Source: Patescibacteria group bacterium (lineage in GTDB: Bacteria; Patescibacteriota; JABMPQ01; JAQVVF01). From it: a stretch of 64,000 nt of DNA. The notes under the pieces were generated by a model. That model saw nothing but the letters and a program-made list of their open reading frames with translations, was not told where the DNA came from and ran no database searches. This document shows, piece after piece, positions 368-63,296 of this stretch (position 1 is its first letter; the number at the start of each line of letters is the position of its first letter). The stretch spans positions 10,464 to 74,463 of the forward strand of contig JBAZSC010000004.1 of the NCBI GenBank assembly GCA_041662665.1. Direction: 5' to 3'. The position numbers and the translations under genes were made by a program.

Positions 368-568
368 AAACTAAATCTAACACAAAAATTTATTCGGAAC
401 AATATTTCACCCTTCGGGTGACCACCCGCAGGGTGGCAATATTCAATATTCAATTCTAGCATCCAATCTTCGTAACAATATCCAAATTTCCTAATTTCCG
501 AATATCTTAATATCCGAATATATTTCGAAATACTTTATAAACTTTAAGAACTTTATAGACTTTACAAA

Positions 569-9255: not shown

Positions 9256-10782
9256 ATGAAAATAAAAACAACAATTTTAATTTTGTTATGTTTTCTTTTT
9301 ACTCCTTTTTTAACATTAGCGGAAGGCTCATCTGCCATATCCTACAGTTTTACTTGGCCATTAGATAAATGGATCTTTGACATGGAAGGTCAAAAATTTG
9401 GCACTATCAGAGGATCTGGGATTTATCATCTTGGCGATGATATTGGAATACAAGCAAACTCACCAGTTTATGCAATTGCCACAGGAGTTGTAAAAAATAT
9501 TGGCGTTTATACTGATTTCGGCACTGTTATTTTAATTGAACACACATTAGCAAATCAAGAAAAAATTGTTTCATTATATGGTCATCTTGGACGAGACACT
9601 CAAGTTGAAAAAGGACAATTTGTTAATAAAAATCAAATTATTGGTTATATCGGTACTACAGATGTTAATGGAGGCTGGCCAGAACATCTTCATTTCGGAA
9701 TCAGAAAAGGCGCCTATGTTACAAATTGGGTCTATTGGGGCTTAGGGTCAAAGGACAAATTAAATGATTGGCATAATCCAACTGATTTTTTATGGTACAA
9801 AATTAATAATCCAGATGTTAATTCTGGAAAAATTGTAACCTCCCCAAATTATCCTGGACGATCACACATTAGAATTTTTGACGAACAAGGTCTTGCCATT
9901 CCAACTTTTGATTTCTTCGCTTACCCTCCAAAGAACAAACAAGGATCTCAAATTTCTCTTGGCGATATCAATAATGATCAAAAACAAGAATTAATAATTA
10001 GCTCAAATAGTTATAAACCACAAATAAAAATTTTTAACAAAAATTCACAAGACTTTATTGCCAAATTCAAACCATTCTCCAAAAAATATAATGGCCAAAT
10101 TAATCTTGCAACGACAGATTTAAATTTAGACGGTCAAGATGAAATTATTGCCACATCTAGTTCAAATCAATATCCAAAAATAAAAATATTTTCTTTATCC
10201 GCCGAAGTCCCGCAGGACGAAGGCGGACTATACAAAACAACAAACACTTTTATAGAATTAACAAAAATTCCAAGTCCATTTAGCCATAAAATAAAATGCG
10301 GAATTAATTTAACAACTATTGATCTAAATAATGATGGCAAGAAAGAGATTCTCGCTACACCAGCCAATAATAAAAAATCAGTTTTAAAATATTGGGACGG
10401 CACAACTTGGCAAATTTTAAAATCCAGGATTTTCAAAAAAACTACCGCAAAATTAACAACTGGCGATATTGATGCAGATGGCAATGAAGAAATAATTGCT
10501 GGCTCACAATCAAATACAAGATCAGTCATCAAAATTATTAATAAAAATGGACACATCAGAAAGAAAAAAATTAAACCATTTGCCAGATATAATCAAGACG
10601 GAATAAATATTTCAACAGTTGATTACAATAATGATGGCATTACTGAAATAATTACTTCAATTGCCAAAAATGGCTCGCCTAGAATTAAAGTTTTTCAATA
10701 TCCTCAAAATATTGCCATTGCCAATTTTTTAGCCTATAATGAAAATTTCACTGGTGGTGTAAATATAGTGGGAATAAAATAA
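9256..10782 (+). CDS. Secreted M23-family metallopeptidase fused to FG-GAP/VCBS-like repeats
   Basis: Signal peptide. M23 motifs HLGDDIG (HxxxD) and EHLHFGI (HxH). At least five DxNxDGxxE repeats (DINNDQKQE, DLNLDGQDE, DLNNDGKKE, DIDADGNEE, DYNNDGITE). Confidence 0.8.
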   Translation: MKIKTTILILLCFLFTPFLTLAEGSSAISYSFTWPLDKWIFDMEGQKFGTIRGSGIYHLGDDIGIQANSPVYAIATGVVKNIGVYTDFGTVILIEHTLANQEKIVSLYGHLGRDTQVEKGQFVNKNQIIGYIGTTDVNGGWPEHLHFGIRKGAYVTNWVYWGLGSKDKLNDWHNPTDFLWYKINNPDVNSGKIVTSPNYPGRSHIRIFDEQGLAIPTFDFFAYPPKNKQGSQISLGDINNDQKQELIISSNSYKPQIKIFNKNSQDFIAKFKPFSKKYNGQINLATTDLNLDGQDEIIATSSSNQYPKIKIFSLSAEVPQDEGGLYKTTNTFIELTKIPSPFSHKIKCGINLTTIDLNNDGKKEILATPANNKKSVLKYWDGTTWQILKSRIFKKTTAKLTTGDIDADGNEEIIAGSQSNTRSVIKIINKNGHIRKKKIKPFARYNQDGINISTVDYNNDGITEIITSIAKNGSPRIKVFQYPQNIAIANFLAYNENFTGGVNIVGIK

Positions 10783-10796
10783 CTGCACTAAAATTA

Positions 10797-10890: not shown

Positions 10891-10904
10891 TATTTAAGAC
10901 ACGT

Positions 10905-12501: not shown

Positions 12502-15044
12502 GTCTTTCCAAAAAATATAATATTTTAGAACAAGAACAAAAATGGCAGAATTTTTGGGATCAAAACAATATTTATAAGTTCAATTCTAGCTCAAAAAAGC
12601 CAATTTTCTCAGTTGACACTCCTCCGCCTTATGCTTCAGCAGCTCATCTTCATGTCGGCCATGCCATGTCTTATACTCAAGCCGAATTTATCATCCGTTT
12701 CAAAAGAATGCAAGGTTTTAATGTTTTTTATCCCATGGGTTTTGATGACAATGGCTTACCAACTGAAAGATATGTTGAACAAAAATACAAAATTGCTGAT
12801 AAATCAAAAATTTCTCGCGAAGAATTTATTCAATTATGTTTAAAAGAAACCAAAGAAGTTGCCAAAACTTATACTTCTCTTTGGAAATCTTTAGGCCTTT
12901 CAATTGACTGGTCTTTATTATACTCAACAATCAGCGAATCATCTCGTCGTATTTCTCAAAAATCATTTTTAGATTTATACAAAAAAGGCTTATTAGAACA
13001 TCGCGAAGAGCCAACAATTTGGTGTCCGCACGACCAAACAGCATTAGCTCAAGCAGATCTTGAAGATGCCGAAGAAAAATCTACACTAAACTATATATCG
13101 TTCGAACTTAAACACTCAAACACTGAAACACCGGAACACTCTGACGATCCGACGCTCCGACGTTCTGACGCTCTCATTATCGCCACTTCCAGACCAGAAT
13201 TATTACCTGCATGTGTAGCTCTCTATGTCAATCCAGACGATGTCCGTTACAAAAACTTAATAAACAAAACTGCCATTGTTCCATTGTTTAATTATGAAAT
13301 CAAAATAAAATCCGACCCCACTGTTGATCCAAAATTTGGGACTGGCTTAATGATGGTTTGTACTTGGGGCGACTCCGAAGATGTTGCCAAATGGAAAAAA
13401 GACAAACTAGACACTAGATTAATTTTTGATAAATCTGGCCATCTTAATGAATGGGCAAAAACTTATCAAGGCTTAGATATAAAAACAGCTCGCACAAAAA
13501 TTTTAGAAGATTTACAAAAACAAAATCTTTTAGTCAAACAAGAAGATATTACTCATGTTTTAAATGTTCATGAACGTTGTAAAACTCCTGTTGAATTTTA
13601 TTTAACTAAACAATGGTTCATTAAAATTTTAGACAATTTAGAGGATTTTAAAAAACAAGGAAACAAAATAAATTGGTTTCCGCTCTTCATGAAAAAGAAA
13701 TATGACACCTGGCTAGATGGCTTAAAATGGGATTGGAATATTTCAAGAGAGCGCTATTATGGCGTCCCATTTCCAGTTTGGTATTGCAAAAAATGTCATG
13801 AAATAATTTTACCTGACGAAAAAGATTTGCCAATTGATCCATTACAAGATCAACCAAAACATCCTTGCCCAAAATGCCAATCGGAAGAATTTGTTCCAGA
13901 AAAAGATGTAATGGACACATGGATGACATCATCATTGACTCCACAAATTAATTCTCATTGGCAAGAACAAGATGAAAACAAAAAACTTTATCCAATGTCT
14001 TTACGGATTCAAGCTTTTGAAATTATCAGAACTTGGCTTTTTTATACAGTTGTAAAATCTTGGTACCATGAAAAAAAATTACCATGGCAGGATGTTATGA
14101 TTTCAGGCCATGGCTTGGATGAACAAGGCCGAAAGATTTCTAAATCATTAGGCAATTATGAACCAGTTGCTAATATAATTAAACGCTATGGTTCTGATGC
14201 TCTGCGTTATTGGTCAGCTGGATCAAATTTAGGAAATAATTTGAGATATAAAGAAGAAGAAGTCAAAGATGGCAAAAAATTAATCACCAAATTATTCAAC
14301 GCTTCAAAATTTAGCTTAATGTTTTTGCAATCCGTCAATCCGTCCGACTTTAAGAACTTTATGAACTTTAAAAACTTTCAACTTCAACCTCTTGATCAAT
14401 GGATATTAAGTAAACTTCAAACAACAATTAAAAACGTTACTGAACATTTTAACACGTACGAGTATTCAAAAGCCAAAAAAGAAGTTTACAACTTTTTCTG
14501 GAAAAATTTTGCTGATAATTATATTGAGCTTGCAAAATCAAGACTTTACAATGATGAAAACAAAGTAGCTAAAACATCAGCTCAAGCAACATTATATATT
14601 TGTTTAATAAATATTTTAAAAATGTTCGCGCCAATCTTGCCTCACATCACTGAAGAGATTTGGCAAGCGTTGCGAGAATTAAACAACGAAACAAAAAAAC
14701 AAGAAAACAGTCCAACTATCGAACAATCAATTCATATTAGTGCTTGGCCAAAAGTTGATAAAAAATTAGTTAACGAAAAGCAAGAAAAACTTGGTGATCA
14801 GATTGTCGAAATTTTAGCCGAAGTCCGAAAAACAAAATCGAATACTAATCTTGCAATGAATAAAGAAATCAAAGAAATAATTATTGATTCTAAAGAAAAA
14901 GATTTAGAAAAATTCTTTCCAGATCTAGCCAATGCCACACATGCCGAACAAATTTCATTTGGCACTGGCGATCTTCACCCTACGAGTGACCACCCGAAGG
15001 GTGGGAAAATTTCTGAAAATCTTAAAATAAAAATTGTTTTGTAG
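12495..15044 (+). CDS. valS: Valyl-tRNA synthetase (class I aaRS; Val assignment from the PPPYAS...HVGHA motif)
   Basis: HIGH region PPPYASAAHLHVGHA and KMSKS region KISKSLGN; 849 aa. Contains in-frame repeat-derived inserts at 13137-13176, 14332-14386 and 14962-15003. Confidence 0.75.
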   Translation: MSSLSKKYNILEQEQKWQNFWDQNNIYKFNSSSKKPIFSVDTPPPYASAAHLHVGHAMSYTQAEFIIRFKRMQGFNVFYPMGFDDNGLPTERYVEQKYKIADKSKISREEFIQLCLKETKEVAKTYTSLWKSLGLSIDWSLLYSTISESSRRISQKSFLDLYKKGLLEHREEPTIWCPHDQTALAQADLEDAEEKSTLNYISFELKHSNTETPEHSDDPTLRRSDALIIATSRPELLPACVALYVNPDDVRYKNLINKTAIVPLFNYEIKIKSDPTVDPKFGTGLMMVCTWGDSEDVAKWKKDKLDTRLIFDKSGHLNEWAKTYQGLDIKTARTKILEDLQKQNLLVKQEDITHVLNVHERCKTPVEFYLTKQWFIKILDNLEDFKKQGNKINWFPLFMKKKYDTWLDGLKWDWNISRERYYGVPFPVWYCKKCHEIILPDEKDLPIDPLQDQPKHPCPKCQSEEFVPEKDVMDTWMTSSLTPQINSHWQEQDENKKLYPMSLRIQAFEIIRTWLFYTVVKSWYHEKKLPWQDVMISGHGLDEQGRKISKSLGNYEPVANIIKRYGSDALRYWSAGSNLGNNLRYKEEEVKDGKKLITKLFNASKFSLMFLQSVNPSDFKNFMNFKNFQLQPLDQWILSKLQTTIKNVTEHFNTYEYSKAKKEVYNFFWKNFADNYIELAKSRLYNDENKVAKTSAQATLYICLINILKMFAPILPHITEEIWQALRELNNETKKQENSPTIEQSIHISAWPKVDKKLVNEKQEKLGDQIVEILAEVRKTKSNTNLAMNKEIKEIIIDSKEKDLEKFFPDLANATHAEQISFGTGDLHPTSDHPKGGKISENLKIKIVL

Positions 15045-20355: not shown

Positions 20356-20452
20356 ATCTCAAATTCCAAACAAATACCAAATCACAATACACAAAGATTT
20401 TTGGAATTTGGAATTTGGAATTTGTTTGGGATTTGGAATTTGGGATTTTAAT
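20344..20452. repeat. Long inverted repeat, caaattccaaa family
   Basis: tacaaatctcaaattccaaacaaatacc... pairs with ...ttggaatttggaatttggaatttgtttgggatttggaatttggg. Confidence 0.7.
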
Positions 20453-20564: not shown

Positions 20565-21023
20565 TTGCTAGTTACTAGTTACTTCAAAATGGAAATTATT
20601 TCTAAATCATCGCAACAAACACAAGATATCGCTCACAAACTTGCTCAACAATTAAATGGTGGCGAAATTTTATGTTTCTCTGGTGAATTAGGTGCCGGAA
20701 AGACCACTTTTATTCAAGGCCTAGCCAAAGGATTAGAAATCAAAGAAAATCTAACTAGCCCAACTTTTGTCATCTTCAAAAAATATCCTGCCAAAAACAA
20801 TCTCGAATTTTATCATTTTGATTTATACAGAATTCATGATCCACAAGAAATTTTAGATTTGGGCTATACCGAAATCATTAATAACAAAAAAAATATATCA
20901 GCAATAGAATGGTCAGAAAAAATTAAGGATCAAATTCCACTCAAAAATGTAATTCATATTAACTTAGAATATCTCGACAAAGATCAAAGAAAAATAATAA
21001 TCAACGAGAATAATGAATTATGA
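20565..21023 (+). CDS. tsaE: tRNA threonylcarbamoyladenosine biosynthesis ATPase TsaE
   Basis: GELGAGKTT P-loop and SPTF motif; about 150 aa. An alternative start at 20589 is possible. Confidence 0.8.
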   Translation: MLVTSYFKMEIISKSSQQTQDIAHKLAQQLNGGEILCFSGELGAGKTTFIQGLAKGLEIKENLTSPTFVIFKKYPAKNNLEFYHFDLYRIHDPQEILDLGYTEIINNKKNISAIEWSEKIKDQIPLKNVIHINLEYLDKDQRKIIINENNEL

Positions 21024-21162
21024 ATCAAGAATTATGATTAGAATTATGAATTACTGAATAACGATTTTTTTAATTTTCATAATTCTCAATTCAATATTCA
21101 AATCATCATTCATAATTCATCATTCATAATTCATAATTCATAATTCATAATTCATAATTCAC
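21010..21162. repeat. Imperfect inverted oligo-repeat (gaattatga / tcataattc words)
   Basis: gaattatgaatcaagaattatgattagaattatgaatt lies opposite (cataattcat)n x about 6. Confidence 0.6.
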
Positions 21163-21166: not shown

Positions 21167-21862
21167 ATGATTTATCTTTGGTACATTTTTGTCGCCTTAT
21201 TGCCAGGTTTATTCTGGCTCTGGTTTTATCGTCGAAAAGACAGACAAAATCCAGAACCATTAAAACAAATTTTCAAAATCTTTGTTTGGGGCATGGCTGC
21301 AACAATTCCTGCTATTGCTTTGGAATTCTCCGCTGATTTTTTTATTCCTTATGCTTCGTCAACAAAATATTTAGCCATGGTTTTAAGCTCATTTTTAATC
21401 GTCGCTCCGATTGAAGAATTTTTTAAATATTTAGTTTTAAAGCACAAAGCAGCAGAAAGCAAAGAATTCAACGAACCAATTGATGGAATTATTTATGGCA
21501 TTGTTGTTGGCTTAGGCTTTGCGACATTAGAAAACTTTTTGGTAACTTTAAGCGATGGCGGAACAGTTATTATTTTACGCTTTGCAACTGCTACTTTAAT
21601 GCATGCGATTTGTTCTGGTATCGTTGGTTATTATCTTGCTCGTCAAAAATTCCATCCTCAAGGCAACAAATCAAGCGTCATGAAAGGACTTTTCCTTGCC
21701 ATTTTTTTGCATGGCTTATACAATTCCGTCGCCTCTTACAATTCATCATATTCAATCATTTTGCTCGCTATTTTAATCATTGTCATGTATCTGATGCTTT
21801 CTCAAGATATTAAAGCCATAAAAAGATTAAAAATTACTGCTCAACAAAATAATCAAGAATAA
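21167..21862 (+). CDS. PrsW-family intramembrane metalloprotease
   Basis: Multi-TM protein with the EEFFKYL (EExxK), FATATLMH and HGLYN motifs of the PrsW family. Confidence 0.65.
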   Translation: MIYLWYIFVALLPGLFWLWFYRRKDRQNPEPLKQIFKIFVWGMAATIPAIALEFSADFFIPYASSTKYLAMVLSSFLIVAPIEEFFKYLVLKHKAAESKEFNEPIDGIIYGIVVGLGFATLENFLVTLSDGGTVIILRFATATLMHAICSGIVGYYLARQKFHPQGNKSSVMKGLFLAIFLHGLYNSVASYNSSYSIILLAILIIVMYLMLSQDIKAIKRLKITAQQNNQE

Positions 21863-21947
21863 TTCATTAGTACACCATTCGCAAACACTTGTCCACCGAA
21901 GTCCCGCAGGACGCAGGTGGATTCGAAAATTAATTAGAGTGTACAAC

Positions 21948-21982
21948 CAAAACTCCAAGAAATTTCCTGGAGTTTTTTTTGC
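21948..21982 (+). terminator. Rho-independent terminator after the prsW-like gene
   Basis: actccaagaaatttcctggagt followed by a T8 run. Confidence 0.6.
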
Positions 21983-22029: not shown

Positions 22030-24078
22030 TTATCTACCTATGGCATAATATCTTTCTGAAAAATCAAATGGAGAATTCAAATAAATCGTAAAAGTATTTT
22101 CTTTGTTATTTTGTCTGGCGTCTAAATCAGACCATTCTCTTAGTTCAACATCATATAATTTTAAATGCAAGTCGCTTTCTTTTAAGCCAGTCATTTTCTT
22201 TTTTAAAACTTTAAATTCTTTTTTAGTATAATAAAAAATCACTTTAATTTTAAAGCTATCAGACAATTGATTTAAATCAGTTGTTATCAACCAATTTTTT
22301 TTCAACAACATATTTTCTGCATTAACATAAGTTATTGGATATTTTTTAAATCTTTGCACTTGCCAATAATAATTATATTTTTTAAGACTCTTAGAATATT
22401 TCTTAAAAACAAAATCAAAATCATTAGCAAAATAATTATGGTTTTTTCCTTTAATCTTGACTGTTTTATCGTTTGCTTTCTTAGTTACAAATTTAGCTTT
22501 TTTAATTACATACTTTTTACTGACAACAGAAGATTGATTGCCAGCATTATCAATTGCCATAAATTTCAAAGTCATGTCTTTGGAAACAACAATTTTCTTG
22601 CTGTAAACATCGGAAGTTGTTTTTGGCTTCTTGCCATTAGTTGTATAATAAATTTTATCCACGCCAGAAAGAGCATCAGTTGCTGACAAAGCAACTTTTT
22701 TAATATTTTTATAAGTGCCTTTTTTTACTGATGCCAAAACTTCTGGAGCTGTCGCATCATAAACAATGCTGGCTGACACTGCTGCTGTTTCTGCATACCA
22801 AGTATCTCGAAATTTTGCATAAACAGTTTTTGTCCCCTCGCTAGCTGATAAAGTAAAAGACTGCGAAGTTCCATATGTCGTCCATGCTGATCCAAAAGAA
22901 CTGCTGTTTTCTGTTGTTGCCATTTCTAATGTATCGCTTGAAGAAGACAAACCAAGCGTTAAACTTGAAGAATTAGTGTAAGTTGCTCCAGAATTAATTA
23001 TTAATGCTGCTAAAGACGGACCAGGAGTATAGGTATAAACCAAACCAGTAGCAATATCATAATTACACACTTGCGACCGATTATTAGAATCAACATCAAT
23101 AGAAGTATAATAGCCAGAACTAGAAGCACCTATAGTATATGTCGCCCAAGAGCCAGACACATTAGTCGCATATTTCAAACCATTGCCAGAATAAGTAATT
23201 CTAACTTTATCATTAGAATCAATTGCCAAAGAATTATTTGATCCCACAGTGCCAGAACTGTCTAAAATTTGTACTGTCCCCCAAAAGCTGGGCCTACCAG
23301 TAATATACTTCAAATCATAACTTACATTATCAAAATAACAAATATGAACATTATCGCCGGAATCAACGCCAAGATCCATATGCGTAGAAGTATAGTCACC
23401 CATATCAACATCATCCAAAGTTTCTCTCACCCAACTCCCAGAAGAATTTGTTACAAATCGCAGATGATTATTAGTATCATCATAATAACTTATCTGCGGA
23501 TAGTTATTGGAATCTAACTCAATTGCTGTATATTTTCCCATATCAGTACTTGTATCATCAACCACTTCTGTGCTCCAAGAACCATAATGGCCTTTGGCAT
23601 ATTTCAAATCTTGTCCTGTTGAATAATAATAAGAAATATGCGCTTCGCTGTCAGATCCAACCGCAATTGAAGTGTACCTGCCTACAACACCAGTTGCATC
23701 TACCTGTTCCGTCTGCCATGATCCAGAAACATTAGTTGCATATTTCAAAGAAGTATTATCTGTATCATAATAACTGATATGCGCTTTATTATTAGAATCC
23801 AATGCTAATGAAGAATATCTACCAACATCGGGACCGCCAAAACCATCTACTATCTCGCTTGTCCAAGAACCAGTTAAATTATTGACATATACCAAATCTT
23901 CATCACCTATAGCATAATAACAAATATGAATTTTATCATTCGTATCAACTTTTAATTCAGTGTCTGTAATATTTGCTAATATCGTAATTGTACTCGCTGA
24001 CCAGTCAGCCGCTTTTACATTTTGCCCAACAAAAATTACACTAATTAAAATTAAAAATAACCACAAAATTTTTCGCAT
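22030..24078 (-). CDS. Secreted repeat protein, paralog 1 of 6: signal peptide, YATN-type propeller-like repeats, chitobiase-C-like module and lysine-rich C-terminal domain ending YYAIGR
   Basis: Signal peptide MRKILWLFLILISVIFVGQNVKAADW; repeats of about 46 aa (SLALDSNNKAHISYYD.TN..LKYATNVSGSW); a KIYYTTNGKKP...KFMAIDNAGN module; lysine-rich tail. Confidence 0.8.
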   Translation of the reverse strand: MRKILWLFLILISVIFVGQNVKAADWSASTITILANITDTELKVDTNDKIHICYYAIGDEDLVYVNNLTGSWTSEIVDGFGGPDVGRYSSLALDSNNKAHISYYDTDNTSLKYATNVSGSWQTEQVDATGVVGRYTSIAVGSDSEAHISYYYSTGQDLKYAKGHYGSWSTEVVDDTSTDMGKYTAIELDSNNYPQISYYDDTNNHLRFVTNSSGSWVRETLDDVDMGDYTSTHMDLGVDSGDNVHICYFDNVSYDLKYITGRPSFWGTVQILDSSGTVGSNNSLAIDSNDKVRITYSGNGLKYATNVSGSWATYTIGASSSGYYTSIDVDSNNRSQVCNYDIATGLVYTYTPGPSLAALIINSGATYTNSSSLTLGLSSSSDTLEMATTENSSSFGSAWTTYGTSQSFTLSASEGTKTVYAKFRDTWYAETAAVSASIVYDATAPEVLASVKKGTYKNIKKVALSATDALSGVDKIYYTTNGKKPKTTSDVYSKKIVVSKDMTLKFMAIDNAGNQSSVVSKKYVIKKAKFVTKKANDKTVKIKGKNHNYFANDFDFVFKKYSKSLKKYNYYWQVQRFKKYPITYVNAENMLLKKNWLITTDLNQLSDSFKIKVIFYYTKKEFKVLKKKMTGLKESDLHLKLYDVELREWSDLDARQNNKENTFTIYLNSPFDFSERYYAIGR

Positions 24079-24152
24079 ACTTTTTTATTAATTAGTAGTG
24101 ATATTCCTGCCTGATAACAGTCAGGTATAACAAAATTTGCGTAAATTCACAA

Positions 24153-26000
24153 TTATCTTCCGATTGCATAATATCTTTCCGAATAATTAAATGGCGAACT
24201 TAAATAAATCATAAAAGTATTTTTTTTAGTATTCGGCTTGACTTGCAAATCCGCCCATTCTCTTGATTCAGAATTATATAATTTTAGATAAAGATTTTTC
24301 TCTTTCAAACCTTTTACCTTTTTCTTTAAAGCCTTAAATTCTTTATTAGTATAAGAAAATACTAATTTTAATTTTACTGGTTTGCTAGAATTATATTTTT
24401 GATAATCAGTTTTAATTTTCCAATATTTCTTTATCAAATTATGCTTTGCGTCAACAAAAAGTTTCGTATACTTTTTTTGCCTCTCAACCAAAAAATATCT
24501 TTTTGTCTTTTTAAAACTTTTTGGAAATTTTTTGAAAGTCAAATTTAATTCTCTTGCATAATATTTTTTATTTTTTTTCTTGATTTTAACTTCATTCTTT
24601 TTCTTGGATTTTTTTGTTGTAAATTTTGGATTGCCAACATATTTAACAATTTGTGAAACAACATCTGATTCAGCATGCCAAGCATCTCTATATTTTACAT
24701 AAACAGTTTTCTTGCCTTTTTTTGCTGGCATTTTAAATGTCTTATCAGCCAAATAACTTTGCCAAGTTTTGTTTGAAAAATCAGATTTTGTTGACACAAT
24801 CATTTCGACCGGACTTTCAGTCAAAGAAGATGTAATATGAATTTTTCTATAAGCAGAATATTTACGTCCATAATTTATTTCTGTTATTTGATTTGAAGGA
24901 CCAGGAGTATTAGCAAGTTTTAATTTCTCGCTTGTCTGATCATAATATGCGATATAGGCTCTGTTTTTTGAATCCACATCCAAAGATGGATAACCAACAA
25001 CATCGCTGTCATTCAAAGTATTTTTTACAAAAGAATCAGTTACATTGCTCATATAGCCTATCCAATTTCCTCCTCCAACTGTTCCGCCATAATAACTTAA
25101 ACGAACCTTATTATCAGAATCTAAAGCTAAAGAATTATTAAATGCTGTAAAATCAGGCAAGATTTCACTATCCATATCGCTTATCGTCCAATTACTGTCT
25201 GCCGTTGTTTTAGTCGCATATTTAAGCGTCGTATTAGGATTAGCTAAATACAAATAAGCCAAATGTGCTGTATTATTGCTATCAAACTTCAAAGAATTAA
25301 AATAACCAGTTCTATAAGTACTATCAATCGCGCTCAATACCCAACTGCCGGAAACATTAGTCGCATATTTCAAATAATCATTTGTCCCTTCAAAATAAGC
25401 AATATGAACTTTATTATTAGAATCAATAGCCAGAGAATTAAACGTTCCACTATTATCAACCGTATCCAAAGTCTCATAAACCCAATCACCAGTAACATTA
25501 GTCGCATATTTCAAATGATCATTAGTACCATCATAATAAGCAATATGCGCCTTATTATTTGAATCCAAGGCTAAAGACGGATATGAACCAGCTTCAATTG
25601 TCGGATCTAAAATTGTTACTTGCCAAGAACCAGAAGCATTAGTCGCATACCGCAATTGATCTTCAATCATAGCATAATAAGCCAAATAAAAATTATTATT
25701 AGAATCAACTGCCGAAGAAATAAATAATCCTGCATAAAGAGTATCATCAACAGTCTGTTGCTCCCAAGCCCCAGAAGCATTTGTAGCATACTTTATTTTA
25801 TGATCAGTATTATCAAAATAACCAATATAAATCTTATCATTACTGCCAACTTTTAAAGAAACAACAGCCGCACCTTCTGACACCATTGGCACGTTTCCCA
25901 TATCAGCCACATCGCTAAAAACCCAATCAGCAGCCTTAACATTTTGGCCAAAAATAAACAAAGTAAAAACAACAATCAAAATTAACAATCCTTTTTTCAT
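24153..26000 (-). CDS. Secreted repeat protein, paralog 2 of 6
   Basis: Same architecture: signal peptide, 7 repeats, beta module after the TPGPS linker, and a lysine-rich C-terminal domain ending RYYAIGR. Confidence 0.8.
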   Translation of the reverse strand: MKKGLLILIVVFTLFIFGQNVKAADWVFSDVADMGNVPMVSEGAAVVSLKVGSNDKIYIGYFDNTDHKIKYATNASGAWEQQTVDDTLYAGLFISSAVDSNNNFYLAYYAMIEDQLRYATNASGSWQVTILDPTIEAGSYPSLALDSNNKAHIAYYDGTNDHLKYATNVTGDWVYETLDTVDNSGTFNSLAIDSNNKVHIAYFEGTNDYLKYATNVSGSWVLSAIDSTYRTGYFNSLKFDSNNTAHLAYLYLANPNTTLKYATKTTADSNWTISDMDSEILPDFTAFNNSLALDSDNKVRLSYYGGTVGGGNWIGYMSNVTDSFVKNTLNDSDVVGYPSLDVDSKNRAYIAYYDQTSEKLKLANTPGPSNQITEINYGRKYSAYRKIHITSSLTESPVEMIVSTKSDFSNKTWQSYLADKTFKMPAKKGKKTVYVKYRDAWHAESDVVSQIVKYVGNPKFTTKKSKKKNEVKIKKKNKKYYARELNLTFKKFPKSFKKTKRYFLVERQKKYTKLFVDAKHNLIKKYWKIKTDYQKYNSSKPVKLKLVFSYTNKEFKALKKKVKGLKEKNLYLKLYNSESREWADLQVKPNTKKNTFMIYLSSPFNYSERYYAIGR

Positions 26001-26050
26001 TATTTTATTTTAATTAACTTTTAACTTTAGATTTTAGACTTTTAACTCAC

Positions 26051-27895
26051 CTATCTGCCGATAGCATAATATCTTTCCGAATAATTAAATGGCGAATTTA
26101 GATAAATAATAAAAGTATGATTAGTTGTATCAGGTTTAACTTGTAAATCAGCCCAACTATCAGATTCAGAAACATAATATTTCAGATGCAAATTCTTTTC
26201 TTTTAATCCTTTAACTTTCTTTTTCAAAACTTTGAATTCATCGCTAGTATACTGAAATACTAATTTTAATCTAACTTGCTTGCTTCCTGTATATTTATTA
26301 AAGTCAGTATTTACTTTCCAATATTTTTTTAACAAATTGTGCTTTGCATCTGCAAAAAGTTTTGTGTATTTTAATTGTCTTTCAATTAGAAAATATCGCT
26401 TTGTATTTTTGAATTTAGTTGGATATTTTTTGAATTTAAGCTTTAGATCTCTTGCGTAATAAGTTTTATTCTTTTCTTTAACTTTCACTTCATTAGATTT
26501 CCTTGCTTTTTTTGTTACAAACTTTATTGGATTGCCAGTATATTTTACTTCTTGAGAAACAACATTAGATTCAGCATGCCAAATATCTCTGAATTTCATA
26601 TAAACAGTATTTTCACCTTTTTCTGATGGCATTCTAAATGTTGTATCAGCTGAATATGTTTTCCAAGTTTTATCTGAAAAATCAGATTTTGTTGAAACGA
26701 TCATTTCTGTTGGAGTTCCTGCAACTGTTGATTTTATATTAATATTTCTTGTTGCTGAATAATTTCTACCATTATTTATTTCAGAAGAAGTGATACTTGG
26801 ACCAGGAGTGAAAGCATAATTCAAATCATTATCAGTAGTATTATAATATGAAATATGAATACGATTATTTGAATCTACGTCAAGTGAAATTTGATTATAG
26901 TATCCAAATAATACCACTATGTATGATCCAACATTATCAATCACATTATATGTCCATGACCCTGAAGTATTAGTTGCATACTTTAATTGTTGCTCAGTAA
27001 CATCATAATAACCAATATGTACACCATTATTGTTATCAACAGCTATCGAAGTATTATATCCTGCTTGATTTGCCGTATCCAAATTCGTTGCAACCCAAAC
27101 ACCAGTAGAATTAGTAATGTATTTCAAATCTAAATTTGTAGCATCTAAATAACTAATATGGATGCTATTGTTAGTCCCAATCGCCAAAGAAGAATACCAT
27201 CCAGCCTCAACTGAATTATCTAAAGTACTTGTTGACCAAACACCAGACAAACTATTCGTCGCATATTTTAGAGTACTATTAGTTTCATCACGATAACTAA
27301 TATGCGCAAACCCATTTGAATCAATACCAAGCGAATTAAAAATGCCCACATCACCAACTGAATCAACTGTTGTCAACACCCAAGAACCGGTTGCATTAGT
27401 TGCATATTTTAAATCACTATTAGTTGAATCATAATAGCTAATTTGAACCGCATTATTTGCATTCAATACTATTGATGTATTATTTATATCAAAAATACCT
27501 ACTGTAATAGTACCTGAATTATCAACAGTTGTAGCAACCCAAGAACCAGAAGCATTTGTGGCATATTTCAAATTACTATTAGTATCATCAATATAACTAA
27601 TATGAGATTTGTTATTACTATCAATTGCTATTGAAACACCTTCGCCTACGTTTCCTGCACTATCTACAGTTGTAATAGCCCACGAACCTGACTCATTTGT
27701 TATATATTTCAAATCATTAGTACCAACTTCAAAATAAGCAATATGCACAAAGCCATTATGATCAACAGCAATCGCATTATCAGCGCCAGTATTTACAGCA
27801 TCGATTGAAGATTTCTGCCAATCCGCAGCCTTCACATTTTGGCCAAAGATAAACAAACCAACAATGGCCAGACAAATTAATAAATACTTCCGCAT
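26051..27895 (-). CDS. Secreted repeat protein, paralog 3 of 6
   Basis: Same architecture; ends RYYAIGR. Confidence 0.8.
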   Translation of the reverse strand: MRKYLLICLAIVGLFIFGQNVKAADWQKSSIDAVNTGADNAIAVDHNGFVHIAYFEVGTNDLKYITNESGSWAITTVDSAGNVGEGVSIAIDSNNKSHISYIDDTNSNLKYATNASGSWVATTVDNSGTITVGIFDINNTSIVLNANNAVQISYYDSTNSDLKYATNATGSWVLTTVDSVGDVGIFNSLGIDSNGFAHISYRDETNSTLKYATNSLSGVWSTSTLDNSVEAGWYSSLAIGTNNSIHISYLDATNLDLKYITNSTGVWVATNLDTANQAGYNTSIAVDNNNGVHIGYYDVTEQQLKYATNTSGSWTYNVIDNVGSYIVVLFGYYNQISLDVDSNNRIHISYYNTTDNDLNYAFTPGPSITSSEINNGRNYSATRNINIKSTVAGTPTEMIVSTKSDFSDKTWKTYSADTTFRMPSEKGENTVYMKFRDIWHAESNVVSQEVKYTGNPIKFVTKKARKSNEVKVKEKNKTYYARDLKLKFKKYPTKFKNTKRYFLIERQLKYTKLFADAKHNLLKKYWKVNTDFNKYTGSKQVRLKLVFQYTSDEFKVLKKKVKGLKEKNLHLKYYVSESDSWADLQVKPDTTNHTFIIYLNSPFNYSERYYAIGR

Positions 27896-27951
27896 AATTT
27901 TTTTGTTTTAAATTTTTAAATTTCTGAAACTAAATTTATATAAATTATATA

Positions 27952-29802
27952 TTATTTACCAATTGCATAATATCTTTGCGAAAAATTAAACGGAGATTTC
28001 AAATAAACCGTAAAAGTATTTTTCTTTGTATTGCGTTTAGCTGACAAATTAGTCCACTTTTTTGATTTCAAATTATATGCTTTTAGATATAAATTCTTTT
28101 CTTTCAACCCTTTTACTTTTTTCTTTAATTTTTTAAATTCTTTTTTAGAATATGAAAATACTAATTTTAATTTAACATTCTTACTTAATTTATATTTTGA
28201 AAAATCAGTATTAATTTTCCAATATTTTTTTAACAAATTATGCTTTGCATCCACAAAAAGTTTTGTAAATTTCTTTTTTCTCACAACCAAAAAATATCTT
28301 TTTGTTTTTTTAAAAGCTTTTGGATATTTTTTGAAAGTCAAATTTAATTCTCTAGCATAATATTTTTTATTTTTCTTTTTAATCCTTACTTCATTTTTTT
28401 TCTTCGCTTTTTTTGTAACAAACTTTGGATTACCGACATATTTGACATTAAAAGATACAACAGCAGATTCAGCACTATAGACATCTCTAAATTTAACGTA
28501 AATTGTTTTTATGCCTTTTTTTGAAGGCATTTTAAAAATCGTATTAGCCAAATAACTGCTCCAAATCTTATTAGAAAAATCAGACTTTGTCGAAACAATC
28601 ATTTCAGTAGGACTGCCAGAAACTGAAGATGCAATATTAATTTTTCTATAAGCTGAATAATCCCTTCCATTATTTATTGTTATTGTTTGAACTGAAGGTC
28701 CAGGAGTATAAGTATAATTCAAACTAGTATTAACTAAACCAGCACTAGTTTTAAAATAAATAACATGTGTTCGATTCATTGAATCTATTCCTAACGATAT
28801 TGGACGATAATATGCATTAAAAGTTTCAAAAGAAAACAAAAGACTGTACGATCCAGTATCCTGTTGATTATAAATTGACCATTGTCCAGAAACATTTGTC
28901 GCGTATTTTAATCTGCCATTTAAAATATCATGATAAGCAACATGCAATTTATTATTATCATCAATTTTTAATGAAGGATAATAGCCCACTTGACCTGCAC
29001 TGTCATTATCAATAACACTTGCAACCCATGCTCCTGAAATATTAGTAATATATTTTAAATCAGAGTTAGTATAATCCAAATAAGCAATATGAATTTTATT
29101 ATTTGAATCAATCGCTATGGAAGACTGAAGACCTACCGATCCATTAGAATCTAAAACTACAGATAGCCAAGAACCACTATCATTAGTAATATATTTTAAA
29201 TCGGAATTAGTAGTATCACGATAAGAAATATGCACCTTATTATTTGAATCCAATGCCAAAGAAGAACTACCTCCAACATCAGTACTAGAATCTATTGTTT
29301 CATTTGCCCATGAACCAGACACGTTTGTCGCATATTTCAAATTGCTATTATCTGAATCATAATAGCTTACATATATTTTTTTATTTCCATCCAAAGCCAT
29401 TGATACTTGTCCCAAGCCAATAGTTCCACTATTATCAATTATCTCGAAAACCCATGTTCCATTAACATTATTCGCATATTTTAACCAATCATTCGTTCTA
29501 TCTTCATAAACAATATATACTTTTCCATTAACATCTATTCCCAAAGAAGAATTACCAACATTAACAGAGTTATCAACAATTTCTGCCATCCAAGTACCAG
29601 AAGAATTAGTCGCATATTTCAAATCAGAATTAGTATTATCAAAATAACTAATATGAACTTTGTTATTTTGATCAATTGCTAATGCATTAACACTTCCAGC
29701 AGATGCCTCCAATTCCTGCGACTGCCAATCAGCAGCCAAAACATTTTGGCCAAACAGAAACAGACCAACAATGGCCAGACAAATTAATAAATACCTCCGC
29801 AT
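27952..29802 (-). CDS. Secreted repeat protein, paralog 4 of 6
   Basis: Same architecture; the 7 repeats are counted explicitly; ends RYYAIGK. Confidence 0.8.
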   Translation of the reverse strand: MRRYLLICLAIVGLFLFGQNVLAADWQSQELEASAGSVNALAIDQNNKVHISYFDNTNSDLKYATNSSGTWMAEIVDNSVNVGNSSLGIDVNGKVYIVYEDRTNDWLKYANNVNGTWVFEIIDNSGTIGLGQVSMALDGNKKIYVSYYDSDNSNLKYATNVSGSWANETIDSSTDVGGSSSLALDSNNKVHISYRDTTNSDLKYITNDSGSWLSVVLDSNGSVGLQSSIAIDSNNKIHIAYLDYTNSDLKYITNISGAWVASVIDNDSAGQVGYYPSLKIDDNNKLHVAYHDILNGRLKYATNVSGQWSIYNQQDTGSYSLLFSFETFNAYYRPISLGIDSMNRTHVIYFKTSAGLVNTSLNYTYTPGPSVQTITINNGRDYSAYRKINIASSVSGSPTEMIVSTKSDFSNKIWSSYLANTIFKMPSKKGIKTIYVKFRDVYSAESAVVSFNVKYVGNPKFVTKKAKKKNEVRIKKKNKKYYARELNLTFKKYPKAFKKTKRYFLVVRKKKFTKLFVDAKHNLLKKYWKINTDFSKYKLSKNVKLKLVFSYSKKEFKKLKKKVKGLKEKNLYLKAYNLKSKKWTNLSAKRNTKKNTFTVYLKSPFNFSQRYYAIGK

Positions 29803-29874
29803 AATTTTTTTGTTTTTATTCCACCAAAGTTCCGCAGAACGTAGGTGGATTAATTTTTAAAAACTTAAAATAAA

Positions 29875-31686
29875 CTATTTTATTCCAATCCCAAAAGTCC
29901 TTTTGCTAAAAGAAATTGGAGAATCAATTATTAAAGTAAAAGTTCTCTTTTTTAAATTTAAAGTTGCAAATGAATTTTTCCACTTTTTCTTTAATTTATT
30001 GTAATATAATAATTTCAAATCACTTTGTTTTAATGTCTTATTATTCTTTTTTAATTTTTTGAATTCTTTTTTAGAATAATTAAAAGTCACTTTTAATCTG
30101 AAATTATTCTTGGCTTTTTTATAAGTATATTTATTTAAATCATCTGTCACTAGCCAATATTTTTTTAATAGCTTATTTTTGTCTATTTTCTTAAAATAGT
30201 TACTGAATAATTTTGATTGAACAAAATATTTTTCTTTTTTTAAATTTTTTGGATATTTTGTCATTACAAAATTCAAATCTCTCGCAGAATAAACCTTGCC
30301 TTGCTTTTTCAACAAAACTTCATTAACTTTTCTAGCCTTTTTTGTTACAAATTTTGGATTTTTAATGTATCTAATTGTCTTTGTTAAAGCACCTGATTCA
30401 GCAAACCATTGATCTCTGAAATTGACATAAACTGTTTTTGTTCCATCAACTTTTGATAAAGTAAAAATCTTTGATGTATCATAAGCTTCCCAATTTGCAT
30501 TTGCAAAATCAGCATTTTCAGAAATTATCATTTCAGTTGGACTGCCTGCTGAAGATAAAGACAATGCTACTGTTCTTAAGGCAGTATATGCTTTATTAGA
30601 ATTAATCTTTAAACTTGTATTTGTTGGTCCCATAGAAGCAGCGTATTTTAAATCGCCATTTGTATGATCCTGATAAGCAATATGAATTCTATTTAGATCA
30701 TCAACCTTAATTGAAGTTTGAAAACCTAAAATTAAAGTATCGCTTCCTTGATCAACAATATATTTCTGAAAGGTTCCTGAAATATTTGTCGCATATTTCA
30801 AAGAATAATTTGGATAACCATCATGATAACTAATATGAGCATAATTATTTTTATCCAAGCTCAAACTAGAAAACATTCCAGTCAATCCTCCTGCTAAAAC
30901 TGCAGTATCAATTGTTGTTTTCTGCCAACTTCCAGATAAATTTGTAATATATTTCAAAGCTTGCACTCCGCCATCATAATAGCTAACATGCACTTTATTA
31001 TTTGTATCAACAGCAATTGAAGAATATTGTCCAACTCCTCCATTATCAATTGCTGAGCTTAAAAAAGATCCTGATTCATTTGTTGCGTATTTTAACCATT
31101 GATTACTGCTATCATAATAGCTAATATGAGCTTTGCCATTTGAATCAACTGCAATTGATGTATTGCTTGTAGAAGATAATGTTTCTACATCGTAGAAAAA
31201 CCAAGTTCCAGATGACTTGATTGCATATCTAACTTTTGATCCATTATAATAGCTAATATTCAATCGATCACTTGAATCAATCGCCATATCCACAAAAGTC
31301 CCGCCCAAAGCATCTAAAACAGAATTTCCCCAATTTCCTCCAGCATTTGTGGCATATTTCAAATCATCATTTACAGCATCATAATAAGCAATATGAATTT
31401 TGTTCGCTGAATCAACCACTAAAGAAGGATAAAGCCCAACCATTACTGAACTCTCGTCAATTATCGTAATTTGAAAACTGCCAGAACTATTAGTCGCATA
31501 TTTTAATTTACCATCACCAAGATATGCAATATGAACATATCCTAACGAATCAACACTAATTGATGTTCCATCTCCAGCAAAACCAGTTGCATCAACTGTT
31601 GTTTTTTGCCAATCTGCTGCCAACACAGTATGACCAAACAACATCAGGCAAAACATTGCCACCAAAATTAATAATTTCTTTTTCAT
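29875..31686 (-). CDS. Secreted repeat protein, paralog 5 of 6 (more divergent)
   Basis: Signal peptide, LKYATN repeats, beta module and a lysine-rich tail ending FGIGIK. Confidence 0.75.
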   Translation of the reverse strand: MKKKLLILVAMFCLMLFGHTVLAADWQKTTVDATGFAGDGTSISVDSLGYVHIAYLGDGKLKYATNSSGSFQITIIDESSVMVGLYPSLVVDSANKIHIAYYDAVNDDLKYATNAGGNWGNSVLDALGGTFVDMAIDSSDRLNISYYNGSKVRYAIKSSGTWFFYDVETLSSTSNTSIAVDSNGKAHISYYDSSNQWLKYATNESGSFLSSAIDNGGVGQYSSIAVDTNNKVHVSYYDGGVQALKYITNLSGSWQKTTIDTAVLAGGLTGMFSSLSLDKNNYAHISYHDGYPNYSLKYATNISGTFQKYIVDQGSDTLILGFQTSIKVDDLNRIHIAYQDHTNGDLKYAASMGPTNTSLKINSNKAYTALRTVALSLSSAGSPTEMIISENADFANANWEAYDTSKIFTLSKVDGTKTVYVNFRDQWFAESGALTKTIRYIKNPKFVTKKARKVNEVLLKKQGKVYSARDLNFVMTKYPKNLKKEKYFVQSKLFSNYFKKIDKNKLLKKYWLVTDDLNKYTYKKAKNNFRLKVTFNYSKKEFKKLKKNNKTLKQSDLKLLYYNKLKKKWKNSFATLNLKKRTFTLIIDSPISFSKRTFGIGIK

Positions 31687-31763
31687 GATTTTCCCTCGTC
31701 CGCCATGCTTCTTCGCTTAAGCGAAGAGCGAAGGCGGATATTAAATAGTAATTATTTTAAAAT

Positions 31764-39518: not shown

Positions 39519-39526
39519 TAATTTTT

Positions 39527-40570: not shown

Positions 40571-40582
40571 AACAAATTTTAA

Positions 40583-40618: not shown

Positions 40619-40620
40619 AT

Positions 40621-41428: not shown

Positions 41429-41430
41429 AA

Positions 41431-59198: not shown

Positions 59199-59310
59199 CT
59201 TCGCCCGCCGAAGCTTTAGCAAAAGCGAAGGCGGGATAGTCAAATACACGAATCAATGTTTCTGTTTTTTCTAATTCACGGGCGGGCTTCGGCGGACAAA
59301 GTCCGTTAAG
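59196..59310. repeat. GC-rich palindromic elements (CCGCC-GAAG...GAAG-GGCGG family) abutting the tRNA-Ser 3' end
   Basis: cccgccgaagctttagcaaaagcgaaggcggg and cgggcgggcttcggcggacaaagtccg. Confidence 0.6.
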
Positions 59311-62441: not shown

Positions 62442-63170
62442 ATGACCATCTTAAAACAAATAGACCGAGAATTAAAACAACATATTGATCAAGGATACAA
62501 AGCAGGATCAATTAGATATTTCAAAGAAAAAATAAAAGTAATTGGCGTAAGAAGTAAGATTGTCAACAAGATTTCCCAAAAATATTGGAAAAATTTATCC
62601 ACCGAAGTCTCGCAAGACGGAGGTGGATCAAAATTAGAAATCTTTAATCTTTGCGAACAACTATTAAAAACTGGTTATAGTGAAAAAATCAGCATTGCCT
62701 TAGATTGGACATTTAGACTTAAAAAAGATTTTGAAAAATCAGATTTTAAAATTTTTACGTCTTGGCTTTCAAAGTATATTAGCAATTGGGCATCTGATGA
62801 CGATTTATGCACTCACCCATTAGGCTATCTTATTTATAAATTTCCAGAATTTTTACCGCAATTGCAAAAATTAACCAAATCAAAAAATAGATGGGAACGA
62901 CGTGCTTCAGCAGTCACATTTATTTATCCAATCCGCTATGATAAAAAATTTCTGCCACATGTTTTTAAAACTGCCAAAATCTTATTGCAAGATCAAGATG
63001 ATCTAGTCCAAAAAGGTTATGGCTGGATGTTAAAAGTTGCCAGCCAAAAATTTCCAGCAGATGTTTTAAAATTTATCAATCAACACAAATCCAAAATGCC
63101 ACGCACAGCTTTAAGATATGCCATTGAAAAATATCCACAAAGGATAAGAAGAGAAATCTTGAAAAATTAG
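62442..63170 (+). CDS. DNA alkylation repair protein, AlkD/AlkC-like HEAT-repeat family
   Basis: Helical repeat protein of matching size (242 aa) with a conserved Trp/Tyr layout. Carries an in-frame GC-rich hairpin insert at 62597-62630. Confidence 0.45.
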   Translation: MTILKQIDRELKQHIDQGYKAGSIRYFKEKIKVIGVRSKIVNKISQKYWKNLSTEVSQDGGGSKLEIFNLCEQLLKTGYSEKISIALDWTFRLKKDFEKSDFKIFTSWLSKYISNWASDDDLCTHPLGYLIYKFPEFLPQLQKLTKSKNRWERRASAVTFIYPIRYDKKFLPHVFKTAKILLQDQDDLVQKGYGWMLKVASQKFPADVLKFINQHKSKMPRTALRYAIEKYPQRIRREILKN

Positions 63171-63296
63171 CTTCTACCCTGCCCACGGCAGGAGTTAATC
63201 AACGCACAAAATAAAGACTTTTTCGCAAAACACGAACCCTTGCCACGCCTGCCCACCGTAGCATGTGCGAAGGTGGGGGCAAGGTAGAAAACTAAA
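63171..63296. other. GC-rich multi-hairpin structured element (candidate small RNA or REP cluster)
   Basis: Outer pairing ttctaccctgcc/ggcaaggtagaa; inner hairpins cctgcccacggcagg and cccaccgtagcatgtgcgaaggtggg. Confidence 0.4.

Follow-up and report, generated by a model that had tools for sequence, protein, structure and literature searches.

Short hairpin repeats on one strand of a Patescibacteria genome, some of them in frame within conserved genes, are probably copies of a miniature mobile element

Why should a short, GC-rich hairpin recur along one strand of an AT-rich bacterial genome, in spacers and within conserved genes alike? The question is raised by a 64,000-nucleotide stretch of DNA from a Patescibacteria group bacterium (contig JBAZSC010000004.1 of assembly GCA_041662665.1; hereafter the window), for which a preliminary description had proposed a six-member family of hairpins with compensatory base changes. 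Our data suggest that the hairpins are probably copies of a miniature, non-autonomous, mobile or selfish palindromic DNA element of Patescibacteria, resembling repetitive extragenic palindromes (REPs) and the Rickettsia palindromic elements (RPEs). This reading is based on insertion polymorphism, copy-number differences, stem constraint, strand polarity and in-frame survivorship. The copies in coding frame and the strand shared by all copies, both missed by the preliminary description, are the most informative features.

A 28-nt pattern of the hairpin, CCRCCRAAGTYYCGCARRACGNAGGYGG, had four exact matches in the window, all on the + strand (10199-10226, 21893-21920, 29821-29848, and 62599-62626), and none in 100 dinucleotide-preserving shuffles. 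A covariance model (R1) was built from an alignment (A5) of 24 distinct copies from the window and other genomes, and the window was scanned with it unfiltered. This revealed eight members, all on the + strand (Table 1); shuffles gave none, and the best minus-strand score in the window was 10.8 bits. The four core copies of the preliminary description were recovered exactly, apart from the second, which had been placed 2 nt off at 21895-21922. Its suspected relatives at 11296-11345, 31697-31738, and 59196-59310 proved to be true ones, and the model added a further member at 63247-63280. The two looser variants counted in the original six (408-436 and 14962-15003) did not match R1 and form a separate family, the latter being an exact insert at 14976-15005. 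Elements are 28-40 nt long, lie 0.6-27 kb apart at a density of ~1 per 8 kb, and have a GC content of 42-71% versus 31% for the window, figures that replace the earlier ones of 35% GC islands on a 28% background.

When copies were aligned with 60-nt flanks, the shared block extended over only about 30-38 nt. Besides the stems and loops, the conserved block of ~38 nt takes in a 5' tag that stays unpaired (YYTGY/TTTAT) and a T-A/C-G pair that closes the stem. From 5' to 3', the element comprises YYTGY (or TTTAT, unpaired), a T/C that pairs with a 3' A/G, CCRCC, GAA, a 4-bp stem, CGCA, the complement of that stem, GNA, GGYGG, and the A/G, giving the consensus YYTGY-CCRCC-GAA-stem-CGCA-stem-GNA-GGYGG-R and a size of about 35-40 nt. 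The basal stem (CCRCC/GGYGG) has 5-6 bp, GAA/GNA forms a conserved 3x3 purine internal loop, and the apical stem-loop is variable, usually 4 bp and CGCA. Divergent members have the tag, basal stem, and GAA/GNA loop in common with the core copies and differ in the apical stem-loop. Folding predicted a two-tier hairpin on either strand, with RNA energies of -12 to -23 kcal/mol (z from -2.1 to -5.8 when the two strands are taken together and from -3.4 to -5.8 for the + strand) and DNA energies of -4.7 to -14.7 kcal/mol. As RNA, the purine-loop strand is ~2 kcal/mol more stable than the other.

Within alignment A5, 98% of cells were paired and double changes occurred at 5 of 10 pairs. The covariation score was 0.454, compared with 0.18 for shuffles and 0.02-0.12 for slid registers. 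As the A5 seed had been picked for pairing, the test was repeated with a pattern in which four pair positions may vary freely, using those of its hits that were selected by flank signature only, irrespective of pairing. These were Watson-Crick or G-U at 111 of 120 free pair positions, versus 99 of 200 in the remaining hits, which are of a chance type with high GC (Fisher p = 1e-16), and each free position showed 3-4 pair types. G-U-type wobbles favored the GAAG strand 6 to 2. Inner stems were AT-richer in the AT-rich clade (GTCC, GTTC, or GTCT) than in other genomes (GCTC or GCGC). Because the stems covary around a fixed GAA/GNA internal loop and a fixed CGCA loop, it is the hairpin, and not the primary sequence, that is maintained and under constraint. 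The preliminary description had argued for selection on the hairpin from paired changes (CCGCC/GGCGG versus CCACC/GGTGG, and GTCC/GGAC, GTTC/GAAC, and GTCT/AGAC), which are as it claimed, and had stated that its reading would fall if a genome-wide census showed no excess of compensatory over single changes; an excess is present among the flank-selected hits.

Three of the eight copies, together with one copy of the second hairpin family, lie in frame within conserved genes, as judged from open reading frames (ORFs), translations, and Pfam matches. The host genes encode an M23/FG-GAP peptidase, TsaD, an AlkD-like repair protein, and a class-I aminoacyl-tRNA synthetase, and orthologues without inserts share 66-83% amino acid identity with the window proteins. 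For example, the copy at 10193 lies in the peptidase ORF (9256-10782; 508 aa) and encodes ..L-SAEVPQDEGG-L... Compared with orthologues, the insert spans 10195-10230 (36 nt); an 11-aa segment is missing at this point from three of them, and the blast alignment of this region to the relatives' loci L077 and L078 breaks at 10195/10232. In tsaD (10869-11978), an exact 39-nt insert (11303-11341) encodes LSAEAKQSEAKAE, and the Pfam TsaD match comes in two separate stretches. P0004, the orthologue nearest to it (81% identity in the alignment), reads ..ISEFP-NFQFP.. without the insert; a database search gave TsaD orthologues at 77-78% identity, and the syntenic loci L077, L078, and L081 were compared. 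An AlphaFold2 model of TsaD had a predicted local distance difference test score below 50 across residues 124-146, which contain the insert, as would be expected for a tolerated surface loop. The hairpin insertion site is a AATTTCCG array inside tsaD.

The AlkD-like DNA alkylation repair gene (62442-63170) contains the copy at 62593, which encodes STEVSQDGGG. The stretch from W to SK is filled by 13 residues in the window protein (KNLSTEVSQDGGG) and by a segment of only 6, of the EIKMQ type, in ten orthologues. The net gain of 7 aa is a 10-aa insert combined with a 3-aa loss (a 30-nt copy and a 9-nt target loss). This gene was recovered with its insert in independent JGI and Logan assemblies. 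As the inserts were seen in independent assemblies of the same organism, an assembly artefact is ruled out.

All in-gene inserts are multiples of 3 nt, free of stop codons, and located at positions that vary among orthologues. The three core in-gene copies of the window and one in a Staskawiczbacteria gene (L011) are read in the same frame, yielding peptides of the form S[AT]E[VA][PS]Q[DS][EG]GG. The three window copies all lie in + strand genes, which make up only ~1/3 of the coding DNA. From this pattern of gene strand and frame, we infer a filter on the encoded peptide.

Codon-level comparison of filled and empty sites revealed no target duplication at the peptidase, tsaD, and synthetase inserts, and filled/empty comparisons established no fixed 4-5-nt target sequence 5' of the insertions. 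A target-site duplication was considered at tsaD, where GAATTTCC flanks the copy, yet the empty site of L077 has an equal number of AATTTCC units. Other short flanking repeats in the window clade were also rejected as duplications, being at chance level for AT-rich DNA.

The copies are not fixed among relatives. Syntenic loci of three or four relatives (L077, L078, L081, L098, L099, and L100; ~114 kb in total) gave no match to model R1, and copies were absent at 6 of 6 testable orthologous sites. One of these relatives, the metagenome-assembled genome (MAG) CAZNOH01, does carry copies elsewhere (L064, L065, and L102). The gap between alkD and an aminotransferase gene measures 13 nt in two relatives (L098 and L100) versus ~190 nt in the window (63171-63360), where it holds the copy at 63247. 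That copy is enclosed by an extra outer stem (63237-63284; CCCTTGCC/GGCAAGG), and a small hairpin, CCCTGCC-CAC-GGCAGG (63177-63192), also lies within the window-specific insertion of ~185 nt that follows the AlkD-like gene. For the tRNA-Ser(CGA) gene and its abutting hairpin (59111-59301), the same two relatives had no alignable sequence upstream of the ABC-ATPase gene.

One copy is shared between genomes. In nrdG, which encodes a radical-SAM activase with the motif CNFRCPFCHNPE, L064/L102 and L086 carry an in-frame copy whose orientation is opposite to that of the gene. Being translated from its other strand, it gives the peptide DPPSSCGTSED, unlike the window peptides. It occupies the same site in two genomes with ~80% identical flanks, where the nrdG linker has been replaced; the relatives next in line (P0243-P0245) do not have it. 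Four positions distinguish the two versions, and at two of them a T-A pair of the basal stem in one corresponds to a G-C pair in the other, a compensatory change. Comparison of the two sequences argues for a stem maintained in situ, or alternatively the change may stem from intrastrand repair or conversion from another copy. At the same site (about 4338-4380 of L064 and its L086 orthologue), a third relative (P0249) has yet another insert, and the site looks like a hypervariable insertion hotspot. The public nrdG annotation of CAZNOH01 (10001-10612 of L102; P0241; 203 aa) starts at an internal Met after the hairpin and thereby loses the N-terminal CxxxCxxC radical-SAM motif, which is intact in a longer ORF that overlaps the end of nrdD.

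Using GC skew as a proxy for replication direction, we found negative skew on the + strand in 31 of 32 two-kb bins of the window (about -0.22), also under + strand genes. All eight copies lie on this C-rich strand (binomial p = 0.008), as do both copies of the second family and four octamer arrays. In L102, where the + strand skew is +0.2 to +0.3, the GAAG form was again on the C-rich strand in 3 of 3 copies. The same holds for L065 (2 of 2) and for L085, L086, and L087, with one exception on a 1.9-kb contig. Altogether, 16 of 17 copies were on the C-rich strand (p about 3e-4, copies within one locus not being fully independent). Copies in genes are sense in lagging-strand genes and antisense in the leading-strand gene nrdG. 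Orientation thus follows the C-rich (lagging) strand and not the direction of transcription; as the GAAG form is on the C-rich strand whatever the direction of neighboring or host genes, it tracks a replication-associated strand. The check for strand bias relative to transcription that the preliminary description had suggested showed all window copies on one strand, independent of transcription direction.

A breadth scan with the exact pattern covered one genome per species, and hits were taken as true members where the tag was present and the free positions were paired. True members were found in Peribacteria (at least 8 MAGs), Uhrbacteria, Staskawiczbacteria, one unclassified Patescibacteria MAG, and one Saccharibacteria-labelled MAG. 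Outside the candidate phyla radiation (CPR), they occurred in an Armatimonadota MAG, a Planctomycetota MAG, and a 65%-GC 'uncultured bacterium' bin. Copy density differs sharply among related genomes. Some other CPR lineages have inverted hairpin pairs (L050, L058, and L091). In Peribacteria, the hairpin is followed at an offset of 0-1 by a direct repeat (10-32+ nt) of sequence 13-125 nt upstream (Table 1). The repeat in L002 duplicates the start codon region of lepA (MEIRNFCIIAHIDH twice), L057, L059, and L091 have duplicated tRNA segments (tRNA 5' ends and a tRNA interior segment), and L045 reads TCAATT-E1-TCAATT-E2-TCAATT. [quoted passage not shown] A pattern scan of IMG/VR gave no matches and hence no evidence for phage origin, and a metagenome scan recovered mainly the source sample.

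Because orientation tracks the replication strand and copies are absent at the orthologous sites of relatives, a mobile element acting at the DNA level is favored over an RNA function, a choice that the preliminary description had left undecided. Such an element would spread within Patescibacteria genomes, landing in intergenic and coding DNA alike. By analogy with the TnpA of IS200/IS605 and the REP-associated tyrosine transposases (RAYTs), its folded single strand might be recognized at the replication fork by a structure-specific enzyme acting in trans. The putative enzyme would read the basal stem, internal loop, and tag, and this would account for the polarity as well as for the conservation of bases that do not pair. 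Purifying selection would then purge genic insertions, save for in-frame ones that encode short, hydrophilic, flexible loops of the SAEVPQDEGG type, and any present-day host function, such as mRNA 3' stabilization, would be secondary. While mobility itself is probable, the specific single-strand, HUH-like mechanism, drawn from this analogy, is proposed only tentatively and may well be wrong.

Several observations weigh against an element of this kind. The mobilizing activity is one that we purely infer, and neither movement nor excision footprints nor circles were observed. Pfam detected no transposase, RAYT, integrase, reverse transcriptase, or other recombinase among 30 window ORFs, and motif expressions for Y1/IS200 and RAYT enzymes, a weak negative, had no matches in the window and 771 kb of loci. 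Target-site signatures are inconsistent: sites in the window clade lack duplications and sometimes show small target deletions or replacement (AlkD and nrdG), which is at odds with the flanking repeats of 10-32+ nt in Peribacteria, and neither the deletions and replacement nor those repeats fit a clean cut-and-paste process. The polarity rests on ~17 copies from ~7 loci of one clade, in which no flip at an origin or terminus was seen. Intrastrand repair or gene conversion can yield apparent compensation in DNA palindromes without selection, and the nrdG copy, kept with a compensatory change at an orthologous site in two genomes, could indicate a function.

A functional RNA hairpin, acting in transcripts as a 3'-end stabilizer, processing site, or protein-binding motif, has a slim chance of being the better explanation. 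It would account for covarying stems with internal- and terminal-loop bases fixed across phyla, for the stability that the GAA/GNA loop lends to + strand RNA, for the bias of wobbles toward the GAAG strand, for three intergenic copies (21887, 59199, and 63247) just 3' of + strand genes or a tRNA, and for the retained nrdG copy with its compensatory change. However, surrounding or host transcription runs opposite to four copies, namely those at 29815 and 31694, the one of the second family at 408, and that in nrdG, and three copies fall within ORFs of unrelated conserved proteins. The element also lacks a U-tract, matches nothing in Rfam even when E <= 10 is allowed, is missing from all testable orthologous sites, and takes its orientation from GC skew and not from gene direction. 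Strict co-orientation with replication-associated skew in several loci, at ~1 copy per 8 kb in the window, would suit a polar DNA motif selected on one replication strand for chromosome maintenance, such as Chi, KOPS, Ter, or a priming signal. We regard this as very unlikely, since a maintenance signal should not be dispensable in sister species, as it would have to be in ~114 kb of copy-free syntenic DNA; moreover, copies disrupt conserved coding sequence, their apical part varies freely, and inverted pairs occur in other CPR lineages.

The hairpins and octamer arrays might also be written by a side-reaction of repair or replication, with no dedicated transposase, for example by capture of hairpin oligonucleotides at lagging-strand gaps or breaks or by template switching. 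The failure to find a transposase in the window and the 771 kb of loci is in line with this idea, as are the small target losses (3 aa in AlkD and the replaced nrdG linker), the variable length of the Peribacteria duplications, and the presence in the window of three unrelated GC-rich repeat types with the same polarity. It is nonetheless improbable: conservation of tag, basal stem, and loop across phyla points to sequence-specific recognition or to copying from existing copies, and not to random filler, the source molecule was not identified, and the three cleanest filled/empty comparisons are exact insertions. Finally, the common frame and similar peptides of the three in-gene window copies and L011 might suggest that a peptide cassette, a flexible acidic linker, is what spreads and that the palindrome is incidental. 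This is hardly credible, as 5 of 8 copies are intergenic, the nrdG copy is read on the other strand into an unrelated peptide, and substitutions keep base pairs and not residues.

How the putative mobile element relates to known systems was assessed by searches and by comparison with published families. At Rfam gathering thresholds, the window and 16 loci yielded just tRNA and tmRNA, and Acido-Lenti-1 elsewhere, none of which matches the element; at E <= 10, the element itself gave noise only. An intrinsic terminator, a GC-rich hairpin with a U/T run directly behind it at a transcription unit's 3' end, was rejected given the lack of a T-run after the stem (3' flanks read ATTCGAAAA, ACTATACAA, and ATCAAAATT) and the location of copies within ORFs or antisense to operons. 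Dispersed copies fit neither the regular spacing of a CRISPR array beside cas genes nor an attC cassette array with R/L boxes beside intI, and no cas or intI domain was present in the ORFs examined. Geometries like those of dif/Xer (11+6+11) and attC sites were dropped, as the element is multicopy and dispersed and no recombinase was found among the 30 window ORFs. Searches of open-access papers found neither a description of such elements in Patescibacteria nor a link of this group with REPs or Y1 transposases.

Among known kinds, REPs come nearest, and to this extent the resemblance to REPs and bacterial interspersed mosaic elements (BIMEs) put forward in the preliminary description, which had already noted a distinct consensus, stands. 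Like REPs, BIMEs, and the REP doublets called REPINs, the hairpins are 20-40-nt, GC-rich, imperfect palindromes with an unpaired end tag and a stem mismatch or bubble (PMC3733652). They are likewise multicopy, vary in abundance between related genomes, and are occasionally intragenic in frame; inverted dimers as in REPs and REPINs occur only in the other CPR lineages noted above. However, REPs are defined by an unpaired GTAG or CGTC tetranucleotide at one end, and RPEs end in CGTC (PMC3733652), whereas the present tag is YYTGY (complement RCARR) and neither tetranucleotide occurs at either end on either strand. The GNAG of the present element sits inside the hairpin as internal loop. Window copies are all same-orientation singletons, without the head-to-head (inverted) dimers in which REPs often occur, their intragenic share (3 of 8) is unusually high compared with the predominantly extragenic REPs, and no RAYT or Y1 gene was detected in the window or the 771 kb of loci.

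RPEs were reportedly described by Ogata et al. in 2000 as selfish palindromic repeats that lie in frame in conserved protein genes of a small, AT-rich, reduced genome. In Rickettsia, they are about 100-150 nt long and add 30-50 aa. The present elements have in common with them the in-frame insertion in conserved genes, tolerated as extra surface segments, and a reduced, AT-rich genome. They differ in consensus, host, and size (30-39 nt, adding 10-13 aa), and we know of no strand polarity reported for RPEs. In IS200/IS605, tnpA (Y1) is flanked by left-end and right-end hairpins and insertion occurs 3' of a fixed tetra- or pentanucleotide. In contrast, the present element is a single hairpin for which neither tnpA/tnpB nor a fixed target sequence was found. 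IS200/IS605 are recognized by an imperfect hairpin with short adjacent bases and make no target-site duplication (PMC5027513, PMC6006769); the tagged hairpin is comparable to the former feature and three duplication-free sites to the latter. IS200/IS605 also have a documented strand bias, with orientation tied to the lagging-strand template (PMC5027513, PMC6006769); a similar bias relative to the replication fork is seen here by the GC-skew proxy. MITEs such as the Coxiella QMITEs and the enterobacterial RU/ERIC are also small non-autonomous repeats found between and inside genes (PMC5896051, PMC2759123). Unlike them, the present element lacks terminal inverted repeats beyond the hairpin and a consistent target duplication, and is 3-10 times shorter.

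The genomes of CPR/Patescibacteria are ~1 Mb in size and usually described as streamlined. A proliferating palindrome, the colonization of essential genes (tsaD, an aminoacyl-tRNA synthetase, and nrdG), and strict strand polarity are unusual for such genomes, and offer a parallel to the RPEs of Rickettsia in a second, unrelated reduced lineage. In practice, the inserts mislead gene callers, as in the truncated nrdG annotation, inflate apparent protein divergence, and provide a ready strain- or lineage-level marker. The unpaired tag and loops are conserved across several CPR classes, and no RAYT was detected in the window and loci scanned; this offers a handle for finding a new hairpin-recognizing enzyme by phyletic profiling. 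More speculatively, and in our judgment unlikely, CPR may harbor a system, not described before and specific to one replication strand, by which small, structured, GC-rich DNA is written into the lagging strand, within genes as well as between them, by an enzyme unrelated to Y1/RAYT or by a side-reaction. If so, the tagged two-tier hairpin, the second 30-nt family, and the 8-nt tandem arrays would all be its products, and essential proteins of reduced genomes would repeatedly gain new surface loops from it.

Table 1. Positions of hairpins and other repeats. Window coordinates unless a locus is named; CM, covariance model R1.
Feature	Position	Strand	Context and score
Core copy	10193..10230	+	In frame in M23 peptidase/FG-GAP gene; CM 55.7 bits, E = 6.8e-14
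Member with divergent apex, GAA/GAA loop	11302..11344	+	In frame in tsaD; CM 37 bits, E = 1.8e-8
Core copy (the one first flagged)	21887..21924	+	Intergenic; CM 55.8 bits, E = 6.2e-14
Core copy	29815..29852	+	Intergenic; CM 48 bits, E = 1.1e-11
Divergent member	31694..31741	+	Intergenic between minus-strand paralogues; CM 18.4 bits, E = 0.0047
Member	59199..59238	+	Abuts 3' end of tRNA-Ser(CGA) (59111-59199); CM 36.4 bits, E = 2.7e-8
Core copy	62593..62630	+	In frame in AlkD-like gene; CM 49.9 bits, E = 3.2e-12
Short member, apical GCATGTGC	63247..63280	+	Intergenic; CM 24.6 bits, E = 7.1e-5
Second family, CACCCT-T-CGGGT-GACC-ACCCG-C-AGGGTG	408..436	+	Intergenic, downstream of minus-strand gene 569-2209; fold -19.4 kcal/mol
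Second family	14976..15005	+	Exact 30-nt in-frame insert HPTSDHPKGG near C-terminus of class-I aminoacyl-tRNA synthetase (12495-15044)
Octamer array	13139-13173	+	
Octamer array	40594-40619	+	
Octamer array	41384-41423	+	
Octamer array	42476-42548	+	
7-8-nt tandem array (example)	477-521		
7-8-nt tandem array (example)	10791-10891		
7-8-nt tandem array (example)	11280-11359		
7-8-nt tandem array (example)	20400-20448		
7-8-nt tandem array (example)	21008-21161		
7-8-nt tandem array (example)	39405-39521		
7-8-nt tandem array (example)	48200-48251		
Peribacteria flanking repeat	L002, about 610-770		
Peribacteria flanking repeat	L059, 68-220		
Peribacteria flanking repeat	L091, 1-160		
Peribacteria flanking repeat	L045, 2100-2300		
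Peribacteria flanking repeat	L058, 1-175		

The intergenic copies have varied surroundings. The copy at 21887..21924 lies 25 nt past the stop codon of a PrsW-like gene (21167-21862, +; Pfam PrsW), and a canonical terminator-like hairpin with a T-run is located downstream of it at about 21945-21980. That at 29815..29852 lies between two minus-strand paralogues (27952-29802 and 29875-31686) and is therefore antisense to flanking transcription. The divergent member at 31694..31741 has kept the basal stem and the 3' GAA and has a long apical palindrome (RNA fold -23.4 kcal/mol, z = -5.3). These paralogues belong to six in tandem on the minus strand (22030-33614), each about 600-680 aa and mostly without Pfam domains (one has CHB_HEX_C/Fn3_assoc); two of their five spacers carry hairpin copies. 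Near the tRNA-Ser gene, a truncated 5' half-copy (59280-59301) has the orientation opposite to that of the full member.

The second family is a 30-nt, two-tier hairpin, CACCCT-N-CGRGT-GACC-ACCCG-N-AGGGTG, with a GACC loop. In the synthetase, two orthologues read GTGDL-KIS.. without the second-family insert. Tandem arrays of the octamer GACGCTCC (variants GACGTTCT and CACGCTCC) account for 13 matches, all on the + strand, versus 0.2 expected. One array lies in frame within the synthetase (SDDPTLRRSDA), and is present in the L081 orthologue and absent from that in L078. In the remaining three cases, a minus-strand ORF has a terminator-like hairpin downstream and the array comes after that hairpin. 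An island at 40560-43020 (38-39% GC versus 31% for the genome) comprises three orphan ORFs on the minus strand (214, 286, and 117 aa). An AGTGKHHG motif is common to the first two; none of the three matches Pfam, NCBIfam, PHROG, or Rfam. The island (40.6-43 kb, 39% GC) was considered as the source of a trans-acting factor and set aside, as it holds only orphan ORFs and gave no support. Behind every one of its ORFs come first a terminator-like hairpin and then an octamer array, a cassette-like layout. The genome is also unusually rich in tandem arrays of 7-8-nt units, mostly intergenic, including AATATCCG, AATTTCC(G), TTTGGAA, TTCATAA (12.6 units), and AGAATCT.

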